From Candidatus Iainarchaeum sp. (GTDB taxonomy: Archaea > Iainarchaeota > Iainarchaeia > Iainarchaeales > JAZDDZ01), in the NCBI GenBank assembly GCA_043809245.1, contig JAZDDZ010000048.1, forward strand, positions 1-51,356: a DNA stretch of 51,356 bases, written 5' to 3'. This document shows, piece by piece, positions 11,326 through 17,798 of the stretch. The position numbers and the translations under genes are program-made. Position 1 is the stretch's first letter; each line of letters starts with the position of its first letter. Below the pieces are notes generated by a model, which made no database searches, was not told where the DNA came from, and was given only the letters and a program-made list of their open reading frames with translations.

Positions 11326-12261
11326 TTAACCGCGGTACTTTTTCCTCGGCAGCCTGCCTGTTGGCTCGTCATTCCCATATTCAACTTCGCCTGTAACCGT
11401 GTTAAAAGGAAGCTGACGCTTATGCTTATTGTAGGCATTCAATAAGCCCCTTGCATAACCAACATCCCAGCCGCGCTCTGCAGCTACCGCCTCAACCCGT
11501 TGATTTTTTTTTCCGTACCTGCTTAATATTGTTATAAGGTTTCCAGCATCCTCATAACTACTGAACCCCAGAGTTTCCTTTAGCTCTTTTCTAAAGGCAC
11601 CCAAAATATACCCGTTAAGACTTTTATACACAAAGCTTCTGAGCTTCCTCATGTCTACTTCTTGGTTTCCTGTGGGCTCAAACCGGGATGCAAGAAAATA
11701 AGATTCCAATTGAATCGTAGACCAAAGGTCTTCAAGATAGTCCCCCTTTAGGCTATATATACTTTTGAACTTCCCAAACAAATATTTTTTCAGCAAAGGC
11801 AGTATTTGTTTTTCCCTCAGCATTTCTTGTTCAGGTGAAAGTACTGGCATTTCCCTGTACACCCGCCCTGATTTCACTTTTGCTGCAATTTCCGGAAGAA
11901 ATAATCTGAGTTCATTAAGGGCAGCGTTAATAGTTGTGTGGCTCTTGCCTGTTTTTTCTTCAAGCTGATGAAGGGTTAAGCTATTCCCCTTAAGCAAATC
12001 AATAATCTGGTTCATTAAGTTTGCCCGCTTCTCCAAGTGCACATTAAGTGAAGGAAGTGGTTTAACGCCTTTCAGTTTCTCTAAAAGTTCAGGGCTCGCA
12101 TTTTTAATTATTTTTTCACGAAGAATTGAGGTTCGCTGATGACTAAGCCTAACCTTTTTAGCTATTTCACCTACTCGGACTCCATGAAGCATCAAATCAG
12201 TTATTTGCTTATCCCTTTCCGCAACAGCTTTTCTTGACCACGTAGGGTACTTTGGAGGCAT
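11326..12261 (-). CDS. Multi-HTH protein with sigma-70 region 2/3-like segment
   Basis: Two HTH-like segments, then EDLW..IQLE...ASRFEP...LRSFVYKSLNGYILGAFRK and VEAVAAERGWDVGYARGLL; similarity judged by eye. Confidence 0.5.
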   Translation of the reverse strand: MPPKYPTWSRKAVAERDKQITDLMLHGVRVGEIAKKVRLSHQRTSILREKIIKNASPELLEKLKGVKPLPSLNVHLEKRANLMNQIIDLLKGNSLTLHQLEEKTGKSHTTINAALNELRLFLPEIAAKVKSGRVYREMPVLSPEQEMLREKQILPLLKKYLFGKFKSIYSLKGDYLEDLWSTIQLESYFLASRFEPTGNQEVDMRKLRSFVYKSLNGYILGAFRKELKETLGFSSYEDAGNLITILSRYGKKNQRVEAVAAERGWDVGYARGLLNAYNKHKRQLPFNTVTGEVEYGNDEPTGRLPRKKYRG

Positions 12262-12295: not shown

Positions 12296-13513
12296 TTAAG
12301 CCTTAACCGCGGCTTTCTTTATTTCCCCGTTTAAAACTTCGCCTGCGCCGCCGAGGTTAATGAGTTTCTTTAGGCTCTGCAAGAGCTTTGCCTTTTTTGC
12401 GGATTTTTCAAAAGAGTTTTCAAGGACTTCTGAAAGCGTTGAAACGGGAATAACCTTGATTTTCTTCAGTTCTTCTTTTGCAATCACTATGTCCTGCAAG
12501 TTGGCTTTTGGAATAATCACTTCCCTGAAACCAGCCTTGATTGCGGAGCTTACCTTTGCAGTAATGCCGCCGACAGGCATTACTTCGCCTCTCACGCTCA
12601 AGGAACCAGTCATTGCAAGCGATTGTTTCACGGGAATTCCTTCCAACGCGGAAATAACTGCGGTTGCAACTGAAACGCTTGCACTGTCCCCTTCAACCCC
12701 TGAATAGGTTTGCAGGAACTGGATGTGCAAATCAAAAGTGGAAATGTCTTTTCCGCTCAGTTTTTTCACCAAAGCCGAAACATTCTGCACTGCTTCTTTT
12801 GCAATTTCCCCAAGTTTTCCTGTTGCAATGATTTTTCCCTCAGCCCTTGAAGCTGCAGGCGCAACCTCTGCCTCAATCGGCAGAACCAACCCCGCGTCTC
12901 CATCGCCTGAAACCGCCAAGCCGTTAACCCTTCCAACAGCTGTTCCCTCAAAGAGGTAAACCTGGTAATCCCTTTTCTCTTCCAAAATTTTGTTCATCAT
13001 CTGCTGTTCAAGCGTTCTGGCACTCATTTTTGCTTCAAGAACATCCTGCGCTGAAACGGATTTGTGGCCTTTTTCCTTTGCAATGTCTCCCGCGGCCCTC
13101 ACAAGGCCCCCCAAATCACGGAGCTTTAAAGTCAGTTTGTTTTTCCTTCCCGCTCTTCTCCTTGCCTCGAAAACAATTGATTCAACCGCTTCCCTTGAAA
13201 AAGCAGGAATCTTTGCGTCCTTTGCAACTTCCTGTGCAACGAATTGCACTATTTTATCCCTGTTCTCAGGATTATCATCCATGTCCAGGTTCATGTAAAT
13301 CTCGTAACCATAACCCCTGATTCTTGAACGCAAAGCAGGATGCACTTTTCTCAGGTCCTCGTAATTGCCTGCTGCAACCAAAACAAAATCGCAATTATGA
13401 ACAGCAACCCCATTCGCAAGATATGTGCCGGCGCTGGTTTTAAGATTGTAAACCATTCCAGCATAGTCAACCTCTTCAATTGAAACAATTTTTTTGGTGG
13501 AAAAATTAAACAT
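12296..13513 (-). CDS. lonB: LonB protease piece 3: IntC2 (40 aa) plus C-terminal AAA+ part and Ser-Lys protease domain
   Basis: ...VAVHN|[30 protein letters not shown] and PVGGITAK. Confidence 0.95.
13394..13513 (-). mobile_element. Split intein 2, C-terminal half (IntC2)
   Basis: Blocks F/G VYNLKT...[10 protein letters not shown] followed by +1 Cys. Confidence 0.93.
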
Positions 13514-15362
13514 TTAAATCACCTGCCTTTTTCCAGTAAAGCAGGGTAGTGTAAGGCATTTCAAGTTCGCGCGCCGCTCTTTTAAGAGTCAACCCGGCAT
13601 TAAGCAGGTCTGATGCGGTTCTTTTATGCATGGAAGAATAATGCCTATATGTAGGCCCGACTGTTTTCATAATCGTGTTTTTAGAAAGCATGATTCGCCT
13701 GCCAATTTCGTTTATTGTTAAACCGCTTGCCCGAAGCTCCAATGCCTTGGCTTTGTTTGATCCAAGCTCAACGCAATCTTCAGAGTATGCAACAGCTTTT
13801 CCAAACCGTTTTTTCATGTACTGTGCTTTACGGCTTGCATAATGAATTTGAACTGCCTTTTCAAATTGCATCACATTCTTATAATTATTGAAAATAGTAA
13901 AAGAATAACGCGCTGCTTTTTCAGCAGCACCCCCCTTGGATCTCGTATATTCTGTTGCCGTGATTTTACTGGTTTCCACGCCGTTTTCAGACAAAAAAGC
14001 CCTTATCTCATTTAAAAAAGCTAAATGTTGCTTTTCAAACCTTTTAACCTTGGCCATCACAAAAGAAATTTTATCGCTAGCGTTTTTTATTTTACCGCAC
14101 ATTTCACAGGATAACAATGCTGAAAAGAACTCCTTTTTTGTTTCGGCAGAAAAATTAATCCACAATGGAACAGCAATTGGCTTGGGTACCTTGCTGCCCA
14201 CTGGGACTCCGAGCGCTGAGAAAAAACGTGAAATGAAAGCATTATGCGCTGAAACTTCTAATCCGCTTCCTTTTAGGGAAGTCGTTTTTCTAAAAACAAA
14301 ATTTGAACTCAAATCTGTTCCAAAAACCTGGAGCAAATCGCGCTTAAACATCTCCAAGTCCGCCAAACTATTTGAATCTGTTGAAAAAAAAACGCCTGTT
14401 CTTGTTAAACCCCCATCACCGAACAGTGCTCCGCTAATCCTTGCAATCAACGGTAATCTGGGATCCGAATAAAGCAAAGGAAATAACCCTCTTTCCCCCA
14501 ACCAATCAATGCAACGGGAAGCCCTTGGAACAGTTCCTTTTTTCCAAGCAGCAATTGTTTTGCAATCTACCCCCAGACCTCTGGCCTTCAATAAGGGGTT
14601 TGCCTTCCAAGCAGCATATGCTTTTGCAATGCGCTGATTTTCTTTACTGTAGGTTTCCATAATTTTCACATCAGAAATTATTGCCTGAATTGCTTCCACT
14701 TCCTGCCAAAGGCTAAGGTCTTTTGCCTGAACAAAATCAGCCGGTGTTTTAATCGGATGCTCTTTGGTCGCCAATAATTCAGTGCCATCGTCAAAAATAA
14801 TTTTCATCAGTTTACCAGAAAATGGCCTCCTGTAAACCCGTTCAAGCATATCCAAAAAAATTCCATTATCTTTTGGAACCCAAATTTTAATAGAATCATT
14901 TAAGTCCAAAAACTCAGCATAGCCCTCTCTGTTAACTTGCCCTGCTCTGCTTTCAAACAACCTGTTTACAAACTCGTCAATCGCGGTTAATCCGTTTTCA
15001 GTGGCAATTAATGTTCCGCTTGGAAAACACGGCACTGCCTCAGTCCTAGTCATTGCCCCGCTTGACATCTCGCTCTGGCCTGTAATGGAATACTTTTTTT
15101 CCTGCATTGCGGTCAAAAGCTCCTGCTGTGCCTTGGGTGAAAGCGTTGCAATTTCATCCAAAAACAATACTCCCCCAGAAGAGCGGTGAATCATGCCGGG
15201 TTCAATGCGCAAATGAGGGGGGGTGCCCAAGCCACCGGAATTGTGCACTAAAATATCTTCAACGAACAAGTTGCCGGTTTCAGTCGTAACGTTGTAAACG
15301 TGGCCTTTGAATGGGTGCTTTTTCACGGAAGAAACATTTCCCTGCGTGGTTTTGTAATTCAT
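13506..15362 (-). CDS. lonB: LonB piece 2: IntC1 (41 aa), 70-aa Walker B extein, IntN2 with LAGLIDADG and HTH domains (507 aa)
   Basis: ...ILVHN|SGGLGTP...VLFLDE...TEAVP|CFPSGT; block B ATKEH; GALFGDGG. Confidence 0.93.
13509..15029 (-). mobile_element. Split intein 2, N-terminal half (IntN2) with fused homing endonuclease
   Basis: Cys1 CFPSGTLI, TxxH block B, LAGLIDADG-like [10 protein letters not shown], two C-terminal HTH-like segments; ends in a stop codon without blocks F/G. Confidence 0.9.
13518..13524 (-). promoter_or_regulatory. Shine-Dalgarno AGGTGAT for Lon piece 3
   Basis: Minus strand reads GCAGGTGATTTAAATGTTTAA: SD 4 nt before the ATG, with an 8-nt overlap of the upstream ORF. 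Confidence 0.8.
15240..15362 (-). mobile_element. Split intein 1, C-terminal half (IntC1)
   Basis: [20 protein letters not shown] followed by +1 Ser. Confidence 0.93.
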
Positions 15363-15384
15363 AAATAGTTCCTCTTACAAAAAC

Positions 15385-15393
15385 ATTAAATAG
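15385..15393 (-). promoter_or_regulatory. TATA-like box (CTATTTAAT) of a putative internal promoter for Lon piece 2
   Basis: Lies 22 nt upstream of ATG 15362; start context CTATTTATG is identical to that of Lon piece 1 (17556) and gene 18443. Confidence 0.55.
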
Positions 15394-15496
15394 GTTGCTC
15401 TGGGAACAGCAAGATTCCAACATGCAATAACTGCCACAACCCGCGGCATTCAAATTAAACCGCTACATGACAATAGCGCACCACCTTGTCTGGCAT

Positions 15497-16471
15497 TCAA
15501 AGGGTCTTTTCAACAGTTGCTCTCTTTATAACTTCATTAAATCTTTCCTTTTTATCCTGTGCATAACGCAATGAAAATTTCTCATTGCAAGAAATCACGT
15601 GATGAAATGTTGTCCTCAAGAATATTCTGTAGTTTGCAGTAAATGCCCCGTCTTTCCTGTGCCTACCGCCAGAATAGTTTTTGTAAATATTGCCGGTTGT
15701 TTGTACGCCTACGGACTTTAAAAGCGCCTCAACGCCTCTGAGGAAGCCCCTGTGCTCATCTTCAAGAAACTCAATCTTTGAAACTCCAATTGAAAGATCC
15801 GTGAAGCGATTATTGCCTCGGGAATCAGGCCGCCACCTTACAACTGAAACTTCTGATGCGAGGTAACCGTCAAGGAATGCAATGCTTGATTTTTCTGAAG
15901 CTTTGGAAATCCATTGCGGTAACAAGTAAGCAGCGGTTACCTTGTTTCCAACTGGCGCGCCCAAGGCTGCAAAAAATCTAACAACAGCCCTGTCATAGCA
16001 GCGAATATTGAAAGAGTGCCCGTATTCGCCTCCTTCGACAATCTGAGTTTTTCCCTCTGCAAAAGGGAAGACCCTTAGCAAATCCAAATGCCATAAGTCA
16101 ACATCCTTTTTATCTGAAGAAATGAATGCGACTGTGTTGAGCCTTACGTCTATTCCTCCATCGCCAAAAAGCACGCCAAGCATGTTTAAAACAATCTTGC
16201 AGTCCTTATGGCTTTCATAAAAAGGAAGCATGCCAGCAGAATTTAGCTTTTGAACTGCCTTCAACGGCAACGGAATGGCTTTCTTATCGCCCTTTGTATG
16301 CCACCATCTCGCCATTCCTTGTTTTACACCGAGAAGCTTGGCTGCCTTCTTATAGCCCATTGAAGGATTTTCTTCAATGAGTTTCAGATACTCAGAATAT
16401 TTCTTACAGGAAAACTGTTCTCTGGCAGAATACGTGTTGATTATGTCCTGTTCAGTTAGAATCGGCTCCAT
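15497..16471 (-). CDS. Free-standing LAGLIDADG homing endonuclease derived from Lon intein 1
   Basis: MLGVLFGDGG and FLDGYLASE; similar to the endonuclease part of IntN2 (FF.ALG.PVG.KV shared); lies between IntN1 and IntC1 in a different frame. Confidence 0.88.
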   Translation of the reverse strand: MEPILTEQDIINTYSAREQFSCKKYSEYLKLIEENPSMGYKKAAKLLGVKQGMARWWHTKGDKKAIPLPLKAVQKLNSAGMLPFYESHKDCKIVLNMLGVLFGDGGIDVRLNTVAFISSDKKDVDLWHLDLLRVFPFAEGKTQIVEGGEYGHSFNIRCYDRAVVRFFAALGAPVGNKVTAAYLLPQWISKASEKSSIAFLDGYLASEVSVVRWRPDSRGNNRFTDLSIGVSKIEFLEDEHRGFLRGVEALLKSVGVQTTGNIYKNYSGGRHRKDGAFTANYRIFLRTTFHHVISCNEKFSLRYAQDKKERFNEVIKRATVEKTL

Positions 16472-16502
16472 TAAAGAATTCCTTTTTCCGGCAATATCTT
16501 TG

Positions 16503-16532
16503 TTTCGGGACAGGGAGTGGATTTCCGCTGCG
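16503..16532 (-). promoter_or_regulatory. Shared upstream motif, copy B (CGCAGCGGAAATCCACTCCCTGTCCCGAAA)
   Basis: Inside the 92-nt spacer between the IntN1 stop and the endonuclease ATG; matches copies A, C and D. Confidence 0.75.
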
Positions 16533-16563
16533 ATATTAAATAGCCCGGCAATGAACTATTGCA

Positions 16564-17556
16564 TTATGCTTTCGCCAGCGTTATCAGCTTGTCTGCAGGA
16601 GAAATTTTTTCCGCAGCCTTGTCCTTGCCCGAAGTGATGACCTTGTGTTCAGGCGTAACTGTTACCTTATTTTTGCCTGACTGGATGTCGACTAATTCGC
16701 CGTCAAAAGGCTTTCTGTTGAGTGAAAGTATTCTGGAAAAAATAACTTCACCATTTTTATAGCCAAGGGTGAAAATTTTTTCTTTTTCAGGAAGCATTAT
16801 TGCTTCGTATCCTTTTTCTGCTTTGATTATCTCCGCAAAATATTTTTGGCTCATTTCATCCCAAAGTTTTTCAAATGAAATTTTTTTCACAATTCCATTT
16901 GAGATTAGTATTAACTCGTTAACGTTAACAAAACATTGAAGTGGATCGTGACGAACATCGCCAAGCAGTGCGCCTGCCCTTGCACCGGTAGCTTCAACGA
17001 ATGGCGCGATTTTTTTGCCTGAATTGTCAACCAAGAGCTTCGGCGTTTGAGCAGAGGAACGCGAACGCATCTGCGAGCCAACCGCAAAGCCAATCAATAA
17101 AAAGCCGCCTAAAATAAGTGTCGCGGCATAAACAATATCTGAAATGAATCCAAGCTGCCAGATGACGCTTGAAAGAATGAAGAACCCAAGCGGAAGCAGG
17201 AAACCCATTAACCGCATGTTGTCTTCCTCTCCTTTTGAGTCAGCCCTTGCCCGCTGGACAAGCTTTTTTCCCTCTCCCGCTTTCACAAGCCTTACCTTTG
17301 GGTTATTGGGGTCGGCTTTGTTGGGGTAAATAAGTATGTCGCTTAATTGCTGGACTGGCATCAATTCAGCCATTGCCTGAGCCAACATCGACTTGCCGGT
17401 GCCAGGGAGTCCAACCAACAAAACATTCCTTTTCTGGGCAGCGGCTTTCTTGATTAATTCAACGCTGCTGTCCTGGCCTAAAACCTGGTCAACCAGGCGC
17501 TTTGGAACCGGAATTTCTTTGGTGGACTCAAACTTCTTTGAAACCAAATCAGGCAT
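16564..17556 (-). CDS. lonB: LonB piece 1: N-terminal extein (207 aa; Walker A and two TM helices) plus IntN1 (123 aa)
   Basis: LVDQVLGQ, GLPGTGKS, hydrophobic insert, GALLGDVRHDPLQ|CFVNV; start moved to ATG 17556. Confidence 0.95.
   Translation of the reverse strand: MPDLVSKKFESTKEIPVPKRLVDQVLGQDSSVELIKKAAAQKRNVLLVGLPGTGKSMLAQAMAELMPVQQLSDILIYPNKADPNNPKVRLVKAGEGKKLVQRARADSKGEEDNMRLMGFLLPLGFFILSSVIWQLGFISDIVYAATLILGGFLLIGFAVGSQMRSRSSAQTPKLLVDNSGKKIAPFVEATGARAGALLGDVRHDPLQCFVNVNELILISNGIVKKISFEKLWDEMSQKYFAEIIKAEKGYEAIMLPEKEKIFTLGYKNGEVIFSRILSLNRKPFDGELVDIQSGKNKVTVTPEHKVITSGKDKAAEKISPADKLITLAKA
16567..16935 (-). mobile_element. Split intein 1, N-terminal half (IntN1)
   Basis: Cys1 and block B VTVTPEHKV, then TAA about 22 codons later. 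Confidence 0.92.
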
Positions 17557-17798
17557 AAATAGGCTAAGAAGACAAGAATTTAAAAAAAGAAGCATTAATT
17601 GGGGCAACGCTGTTTATGCCGTGCATTTATCTTAAGTGTTTGGCAACCGGCCCTGTATTTTAAGGCATTCGTCAATCGGAATGCCTGAAAGCCAGATGCT
17701 CAGCTTATTTAGGTTTGGATGGTTAAGTATTGAAAAAATATTTGAAACAGAAGCATAACTGTTTTGGGTTAAATGCTTTGGCGAAAATGCCTGCACGC

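Follow-up and report, generated by a model that had tools for sequence, protein, structure and literature searches.

Split inteins such as those of cyanobacterial DnaE and Nanoarchaeum equitans PolB are encoded as halves at distant loci and without an endonuclease. The origin of split inteins is usually modelled as the invasion of a mini-intein by a free endonuclease or as a stop codon in a decaying endonuclease domain. The subject of this study is a gene for the archaeal protease LonB that is divided by two inteins, with the stand-alone gene of an endonuclease between two of its pieces, on a contig of Candidatus Iainarchaeum sp. (GenBank assembly GCA_043809245.1, contig JAZDDZ010000048.1, positions 1 to 51,356 of the forward strand; this whole stretch of 51,356 nucleotides (nt) is called the window). 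A related arrangement, the fractured gene, was described by Dassa et al. (2009, PMC2677866): in the available part of that article the endonucleases are GIY-YIG or Vsr-like and are explained by intein invasion, the broken genes encode enzymes for the synthesis and repair of DNA, most of them of phage origin, and the word LAGLIDADG occurs 0 times. A 2025 preprint on actinophage inteins also favours invasion in the part that is accessible. Novikova et al. (2016, PMC4760082) tabulate ten LonB inteins of Euryarchaeota, as far as that article is available.

Like the DnaE and PolB split inteins, the LonB inteins are split at the endonuclease insertion loop, with an N-half of about 100-125 amino acids (aa) and a C-half of about 35-45 aa, and trans-splicing, which restores an essential enzyme in those systems, would do the same for LonB. 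Unlike those inteins, the LonB halves have stayed side by side and have kept the endonuclease, either free or fused to the N-half. The locus has the make-up of a fractured gene: adjacent open reading frames (ORFs) in order on the same strand, ending in an N-terminal intein half (IntN) or starting with a C-terminal one (IntC), with a separate endonuclease ORF between them. It shares with the loci in the available text of PMC2677866 a conserved enzyme gene split into such ORFs and a free-standing endonuclease gene between the halves, and loci that have lost the endonuclease are seen too. It differs from those loci in that the endonuclease is of LAGLIDADG type and homologous to the domain of contiguous inteins at the same site, not GIY-YIG or Vsr-like, that the host is a cellular archaeal protease, and that a second split intein raises the number of pieces to three. 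Because the arrangement defines the fractured-gene class, the LAGLIDADG type was treated as a variant and not as an exclusion. Hairpins, which in the same partial text lie upstream of the endonuclease genes, were sought in both LonB spacers by RNA folding against shuffled sequences and were unsupported (z -0.43 and +0.71). The contiguous LonB inteins of Euryarchaeota, in the accessible part of PMC4760082, interrupt the same host protein, but are single, in frame and cis-splicing, whereas three genes are involved here; Archaeoglobaceae-type LonB inteins (loci L110-L112) share both the insertion site and the endonuclease family with intein 1 of the window.

The LonB locus is probably a three-piece fractured gene with two split inteins, in which intein 1 has lost its own endonuclease to a free gene and intein 2 stands at an earlier stage of the same process. 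Two class 1 split inteins would divide LonB into the products LonN-IntN1, IntC1-LonM-IntN2-endonuclease and IntC2-LonC (LonN, LonM and LonC being the N-terminal, middle and C-terminal parts of LonB); after translation IntN1 would pair with IntC1 and IntN2 with IntC2, and two trans-splicing reactions would rebuild LonB. The 324-aa gene between the first two pieces would be the LAGLIDADG endonuclease of intein 1 with an accessory DNA-binding part, kept as a working gene and released by a break on each side at the borders between the Hint (splicing) domain and the endonuclease, as phylogeny and anatomy suggest. The enzyme most likely still cuts intein-less LonB alleles, and repair would then copy the whole IntN-endonuclease-IntC cassette. 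Intein 2, with a single break after its endonuclease, would represent an earlier stage, and relatives in which the endonuclease has decayed or been lost, or in which other genes occupy the gap, later ones. A full-text literature search (coverage excluding subscription journals) returned no split LonB intein and no free-standing LAGLIDADG gene between split-intein halves; in the literature searched, a fractured gene of a cellular archaeon with the freed LAGLIDADG domain of its own intein has no prior report.

The minus strand of the window carries four successive ORFs in three different frames (Table 1). The span 15363-16563 is the interval between ORF1 and ORF3 and contains the 324-aa ORF2 with spacers of 92 nt and 134 nt. 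The NCBIfam LonB model TIGR00764 (608 positions) was matched by ORF1 at positions 3-217, by ORF3 at 181-268 and by ORF4 at 266-607, together covering 3-607; scored piecewise (214.6, 119.1 and 512.7 bits), each ORF falls below the cut-off of 516.6. Of the NCBIfam intein models, N-terminal ones hit ORF1 at its end and ORF3 in its middle, and a C-terminal one hits ORF4 at its start. Intein 1 is inserted at DPLQ|S (here called site b) and intein 2 at EAVP|C (site c), and both have the hallmarks of class 1 inteins (C1, TPEH and HN|S in intein 1; C1, TKEH and HN|C in intein 2). For the LonB N-extein, the ATG at 17556 is a likelier start than the listed TTG at 17607, because relatives align from about residue 20. 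The stop codon TAA of ORF3 overlaps the ATG of ORF4 within ATGTTTAA, through which ORF4 is probably translationally coupled to ORF3. The genome (1.48 Mb, 55 contigs, 91.8% complete) has its sole LonB at this locus; one other match to ORF4 was obtained, with 28% identity over 155 aa.

The free protein was compared by BLASTP with ORF3, which contains the endonuclease domain of intein 2, and its residues 1-315 aligned with residues 225-524 of ORF3 (26% identity, E 7e-26). An earlier note, made from the letters of the window, had stated that the free ORF begins where the fused endonuclease of intein 2 begins and that the two have the blocks G.LFGDGG, DLL.VF and RFF.ALG.PVG.KV in common; the alignment runs from residue 1 and contains these blocks. 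The same note had described intein 1 as broken on both sides of its endonuclease and intein 2 as broken only after it, which agrees with the ORF anatomy and the NCBIfam matches. The free ORF also matched the endonuclease part of an intein-containing RtcB model of NCBIfam (E 2.4e-15).

For structure prediction, 38 sequences were aligned: 29 free orthologs including that of the window, three fused site-b domains and six site-c domains. The AlphaFold2 model obtained from this alignment (mean predicted local distance difference test score, pLDDT, 94.2; predicted template modelling score 0.91) has the alpha-beta-beta-alpha-beta-beta-alpha fold, repeated twice, and LAGLIDADG enzymes alone head its list of Foldseek matches in the PDB: I-Tsp061I (E 1.4e-8), E-DreI, I-DmoI, the TliVMA intein, PI-SceI and PI-TkoII. 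The two LAGLIDADG motifs are LGVLFGDGG (with D104) and AFLDGYLASE (with E207); G99, G103, D104, G105, F199 and E207 are invariant in 38 of 38 free and fused sequences, and K232 nearly so. About 90 N-terminal residues form a helical part resembling a helix-turn-helix (HTH), which is also present in the fused relatives. With I-DmoI, I-Tsp061I, PI-SceI, PI-TkoII and the TliVMA intein the free protein has in common the fold (Foldseek probability 1.00, E 1e-8 to 1e-4) and two LAGLIDADG helices with an acidic residue each; it differs in a sequence identity of just 12-18% and in the additional N-terminal part. Unlike intron or intein endonucleases, it is encoded outside any intron and is not fused in frame to a Hint domain. 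ORF2 is thereby assigned as a double-motif LAGLIDADG endonuclease with intact catalytic residues, predicted to cleave DNA.

The origin of the free endonuclease was addressed by phylogeny. A scan of one genome per prokaryote species with an alignment motif gave 40 loci, of which the close ones belong to records labelled Candidatus Iainarchaeum, Forterrea or 'archaeon'. Contiguous LonB inteins with a homologous in-frame endonuclease at the same site were found in an Archaeoglobaceae metagenome-assembled genome and two similar records (L110-L112) and in an uncultured archaeon (L108). A maximum-likelihood tree of 51 endonuclease sequences was calculated with IQ-TREE and rooted on five more distant relatives; the trees excluded the broken gene of genome G041, the gene of G056 that runs off its contig, and short pieces from G009, a second contig of G056 and contig C10 of the window genome. 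All free endonucleases fall into a single clade of 32 rows (support 92/96), whose sister group is the Archaeoglobaceae-type contiguous site-b domains (96/93); the next group holds the fused domains of three genomes of the same order, of L108 and of Candidatus Heimdallarchaeum aukensis (98/89). Six site-c domains, from intein 2, form a separate clade (100/100) outside the site-b forms.

Since the free clade is nested among in-frame site-b domains of Lon inteins, the free endonuclease would be the intein's own domain and not an unrelated invader. In the fused proteins the endonuclease part starts with …PILTKENIINTFS…, …PVLTEQDVFNTFS… or …IILDEEDIIQTFS…, which is aligned with the start MEPILTEQDIINTYS of the free protein, and across the relatives the IntN1 frame stops 0-14 residues (30 at one locus) past the aligned end of the Hint N-part. 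Both the start of the free protein and the end of IntN1 match the Hint border, and the breaks therefore appear to lie at domain borders of a pre-existing intein.

Relatives were surveyed in 196 genomes of the same order, with the free endonuclease, ORF1 and an intein-2 sequence as queries. At site c, intein 2 occurs in 9 of the 196 genomes, including that of the window, in frames of 622-817 aa that close where the query does, so that all are broken after the endonuclease; one more genome has a partial intein-2 match. At site b, the complete genome of Candidatus Heimdallarchaeum aukensis (L109) has an intein broken only after the endonuclease: a 705-aa ORF (LonN, IntN, endonuclease) is followed by one of 463 aa (IntC, Lon), the ATG of which overlaps the preceding stop. 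The site-b series thus runs from contiguous inteins through one break (Heimdallarchaeum) to two breaks with a free gene under selection (the window and 33 other genomes). Later stages are represented by broken endonucleases (G041, G149), by remnants of 57-63 matched residues (G009, G152), and by four genomes (G137, G124, G189, G001) with a gap of 0.9-3.3 kb between the halves and no endonuclease homolog in it. The one-break state appears to have arisen at least twice, at site c within the order and at site b in Heimdallarchaeum, which lies outside the free clade. The earlier note had also proposed that one gene preserves two successive stages of intein fission, and that the free endonuclease derives from the intein and not from an unrelated source. 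The first proposal is strengthened by the one-break state of all nine intein-2 genomes and of Heimdallarchaeum site b. For the second, the note had set a phylogeny against intact Lon inteins at the same sites as the test, and in this phylogeny the free clade groups with the Lon intein domains, nested among those of site b.

The whole series, from contiguous intein to one break, two breaks, decay or loss and gap genes, is available for one insertion site of one cellular gene, which makes this route of fission testable by phylogeny and at the bench, and it would mean that the LAGLIDADG domain of an intein can survive as a gene of its own. Dozens of natural, mutually diverged split-intein pairs are also available from this family; the two pairs on one LonB protein are presumably orthogonal, which is of practical interest for protein ligation. 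If both splice as predicted, an essential AAA+ protease of a reduced DPANN genome would depend on two trans-splicing events.

In the census, an ortholog of the free endonuclease (46-75% identical, open frames of 241-422 aa) was present in 34 of the 196 genomes, including that of the window; two of these orthologs are broken (G041, TAG and frameshift; G149, TGA) and one is cut by a contig end. Three further genomes have a homolog 34-37% identical inside frames of 1124-1158 aa, and one has a remnant of 73 aa. The N-part of LonB was found with the ORF1 query in 186 of the 196 genomes, and in at least 43 genomes the frame stops right after IntN1. Among the matches listed for this query, a contiguous intein at site b occurs at six places, and most others end at query residue 225-249 in frames of about 633-750 aa, that is, empty sites. 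By tblastn, the order IntN1-endonuclease-IntC1 on one strand was recovered in 24 of 57 stretches (56 fetched loci and the window); in 10 others the sequence, whether contig or fetched stretch, runs out before one of the parts is reached. Beyond the order, the fractured layout was found in two Micrarchaeota-labelled records (L105, L106) with free orthologs 40-43% identical.

The IntC1 gene starts from an ATG of its own, placed 35-47 codons ahead of HN|S. The first residue of IntN1 is Cys at 20 and Ser at 21 of 41 split loci; T94, E96 and H97 of block B are invariant in the 39 rows of the IntN1 alignment, and N41, S42 and much of blocks F and G in the 33 rows of the IntC1 alignment. Of 12 endonuclease pairs compared, seven had unsaturated synonymous sites, and in these the ratio of nonsynonymous to synonymous substitution rates is 0.058-0.16; the gene is under purifying selection and appears to be retained as a working gene. 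The cassette is patchy, the endonuclease being present in 7 of 38 genomes of family f11 and 7 of 23 of family f24 beside many empty sites. On the endonuclease tree, genome-family labels (14 families) require 17 changes, with a minimum of 13 and a mean of 19.7 after shuffling; the labels are mostly clustered and therefore give weak evidence of horizontal transfer. This distribution fits a mixture of vertical descent and some transfer, with active homing as a prediction.

Promoter-like signals were compared across loci. At 29 of 32 loci a TATA-like box, in many cases cCTATTTAAT, begins 20-40 nt ahead of the IntC1-Lon start codon, compared with 1-3 of 32 in four control windows; the endonuclease ATG has one at the same distance at 16 of 28 loci, compared with 0-1 of 28 in controls. 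A TATA box at this distance agrees with an archaeal promoter whose mRNA is leaderless or has a short leader. The 9-mer CTATTTAAT occurs twice in the window, once in each spacer; since five of 100 shuffles also gave at least two matches, this count is weak by itself, and the argument rests on the positional test across loci. The ORFs and the promoter-like boxes suggest that the endonuclease may be expressed separately. The complex of IntN1 and IntC1 was predicted with a score of 0.90, the best of three controls reaching 0.07; solved complexes attained this mark in 116 of 157 cases and mismatched pairs in 2 of 215, counts that are rough because alignments made for this analysis were used. The IntN1-IntC1 runs shared at least 93% of contacts, with a partner pLDDT of at least 82; because split-intein complexes are in the PDB, the score may reflect mere likeness to solved structures. 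Given the recurrence and conservation of the halves and the sole LonB of the genome, trans-splicing would be the only plausible source of LonB in these cells.

Several observations weigh against the reading as a fractured gene with a freed, still-working endonuclease. A Pfam scan of the free ORF gave 0 families, Pfam LAGLIDADG_3 matched weakly in 10 of 38 relatives (best E 4.3e-5), and solved structures, searched by sequence with the same ORF, gave 0 matches at E up to 1. A contiguous intein 2, sought in the 196 genomes with an intein-2 query, was found in none, so that this site offers no direct ancestor. The endonuclease genes of the window and its nearest relatives have no TATA-like box at -40 to -20, the 9-mer of the window being at -71, and the window endonuclease could be co-transcribed with the upstream gene. 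The host does not need the endonuclease, because it is broken or lost in several relatives, and we infer trans-splicing, DNA cleavage and separate transcription alike from sequence. Finally, support for the node uniting all site-b forms is weak (82/28), and free-standing relatives from unrelated loci (L040, L042) are part of the outgroup; for these two reasons the polarity, fused before free as parsimony on the rooted tree suggests, is likely but not proven.

The weak deepest site-b node and the free-standing family relatives at unrelated loci of the same order also speak for an account in which a free LAGLIDADG gene invaded an endonuclease-less LonB mini-intein, after the model of Dassa et al. 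(2009), and the contiguous forms arose later by loss of the flanks (step IIIa). Invasion is the published model for fractured genes in the available text of PMC2677866 and is favoured for phage inteins by the 2025 preprint, as far as it is accessible. For LonB it is nevertheless unlikely: the sister and next branches of the nested free clade are all same-site, in-frame domains from distant archaea, the first residues of the free protein align right after the Hint N-part of contiguous inteins (…PILTKENIINTFS…), the IntN1 ends lie as close to that border as given above, and the state with one break is seen at site c and also, for Heimdallarchaeum, at site b. Release of the intein's own domain, which we prefer, could also have been followed by a change of function, the 324-aa protein being conserved as a tamed DNA-binding regulator or as a helper of split-intein assembly and no longer as a homing nuclease. 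Purifying selection shows a function without saying which, the free protein has the N-terminal HTH-like part, and WhiA, a tamed LAGLIDADG regulator, is among its fold matches at rank 38. This too is improbable, and somewhat more so, given that free and fused forms alike have an invariant D104 and E207 and an almost invariant K232, that the gene decays or vanishes while the split LonB persists, as selfish endonucleases typically do and a host factor would not be expected to, and that the cassette is patchy within genera beside many empty sites. Four ORFs in different frames of one strand would also result if LonB were a decaying pseudogene, or if a contiguous two-intein gene had been broken up artificially by assembly or frameshift errors, but this account has next to no credibility and was rejected by the census of recurring breaks: the same breaks are shared by dozens of genomes that were assembled independently and come from many families, every piece starts at an ATG of its own, a promoter-like box is conserved before the IntC1 gene, the splicing residues are invariant or conservatively substituted, and the genome has no second LonB.

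Table 1. Positions of the LonB pieces and inteins in the window, and of the ~230-aa gene in the gap of related loci.
Feature	Locus	Positions	Strand	Length	Remarks
ORF1	window	16564-17607	-	347 aa	LonN-IntN1
ORF2 (free endonuclease)	window	15497-16471	-	324 aa	start MEPILTEQDIINTYS; own ATG and stop
ORF3	window	13506-15362	-	618 aa	IntC1-LonM-IntN2-endonuclease
ORF4	window	12296-13513	-	405 aa	IntC2-LonC
LonB N-extein	window	16936..17607	-		Walker A GLPGTGKS, membrane segment, C-terminal DPLQ
IntN1, split intein 1 N-half	window	16564..16935	-	123 aa + stop	Cys1, CFVNV…, block B TPEH
Spacer 1	window	16472..16563	-	92 nt	IntN1 stop to endonuclease ATG; CTATTTAAT at 16535-16543
Free LAGLIDADG homing endonuclease gene (predicted)	window	15497..16471	-		N-terminal helical/HTH accessory part; two LAGLIDADG motifs with D104, E207
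Spacer 2	window	15363..15496	-	134 nt	CTATTTAAT at 15385-15393, a TATA-like box ~30 nt before ATG of IntC1 gene
IntC1, split intein 1 C-half	window	15240..15362	-	41 aa	end …ILVHN, then Ser+1; VHN|S at ORF3 residues 39-42
LonB middle extein	window	15027..15239	-	71 aa	SGGLGTPPH...TEAVP; Walker B region VLFLDE
IntN2, split intein 2 N-half	window	14691..15026	-		Cys1, block B TKEH
Intein-2 endonuclease domain	window	13791..14690	-		in frame with IntN2; paralog of free endonuclease
ORF3 C-terminal tail (residues 525-618)	window	13506..13790	-		two weak HTH-like matches; stop TAA overlaps next ATG
IntC2, split intein 2 C-half	window	13394..13513	-	40 aa	end …VAVHN, then Cys+1
LonB C-extein	window	12296..13393	-		remaining AAA+ module, LID domain, S16 protease domain
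~230-aa gap gene	L049	3932-4630	-
~230-aa gap gene	L037	3824-4525	+
~230-aa gap gene	L028	4166-4858	-
~230-aa gap gene	L046	1812-2495	+
~230-aa gap gene	L059	5886-6608	+
~230-aa gap gene	L064	4457-5158	-
~230-aa gap gene	L064	6412-7095	-

Other genes were found between the LonB halves of relatives. A gene of about 230 aa on the Lon strand, absent from the window, recurs in the gap between endonuclease and IntC1 (Table 1) and has weak matches to the Pfam family Zn_dep_PLPC (E 7e-8, 4.5e-6). This Zn-phospholipase-C-like gene was located at 32 places in 25 of the 196 genomes; 11 places (10 genomes) are in a Lon gap, which is far above the chance catch for a gap of 1-3 kb. A strict 'cassette-only cargo' status was rejected for this gene, as 21 of the 32 places are outside the Lon gap. 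On the opposite strand, ATPases with AAA_14 and DUF4143 matches lie between the halves at L031:5400-6710 (-) and L069:1340-2725 (-), and one with AAA_14 alone at L070:5544-6725 (-). A reverse transcriptase (RVT_1, E 3.7e-19) lies between the halves at L067:4027-5325 (-), and L055:3679-4968 (+) has a 429-aa ORF there that opens with a similar sequence. Four of these last five loci (L031, L069, L070, L067, L055) have no intact endonuclease, the gene being broken, reduced or absent.

Gap genes of this kind (the Zn-phospholipase-C-like gene, AAA_14 ATPases and a reverse transcriptase) raise the possibility, which we regard as tentative and rather doubtful, that the fractured intein is a still-mobile vehicle with cargo capacity that carries gap genes into the essential LonB gene, where they would be hard to lose. 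Such a capacity would exist because a free endonuclease and the two halves need no shared frame, and the content of the gap would be copied when an empty allele is cut.

Some loci depart from the common layout. At L063:884-5160 (genome G052), about 300 nt without an endonuclease follow IntN1, then an IntC1-like piece with the first Lon residues, and a second IntC-like start about 1.4 kb further on with the rest of LonB; the cassette may have been rearranged or replaced. In genome G142 the separate contigs C43 (L075) and C44 (L074) hold between them a fractured LonB and one whose contiguous site-b intein carries an endonuclease of a different type, being either two strains in one bin (contamination 3%) or two alleles. 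In G001 (L037:1363-3771) and G053 (L025:1882-4338) the LonN-IntN1 ORF has 802 and 818 aa, compared with the usual ~340, and the ORF1 match is interrupted just past Walker A by about 1.1-1.3 kb, which suggests a third, contiguous intein at another LonB site.

The HTH matches in the tail of ORF3 (~95 residues after the endonuclease) are to HTH_23 and HTH_Tnp_1, both weak. Tails elsewhere follow the endonuclease in the Heimdallarchaeum ORF, and an HTH-like one ends the L040 and L042 proteins; the free site-b endonuclease has none. The latter two genes (L040:4777-5964 (-) and L042:5148-6311 (-)) encode free-standing proteins of 387-395 aa of the same endonuclease family, with an FLFGDGH motif; their neighbours are unrelated and they lie outside any split gene, so they may be free homing genes or tamed copies. 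The window genome contains a third, more distant copy of the endonuclease family (E 1.3e-9) inside a 1703-aa frame at G000:C10:24273-24662 (-), L003. Directly after the C-terminal Lon piece, the window encodes a 311-aa protein at 11326-12261 (-) with weak MarR_2-type HTH similarity (E 0.0012).

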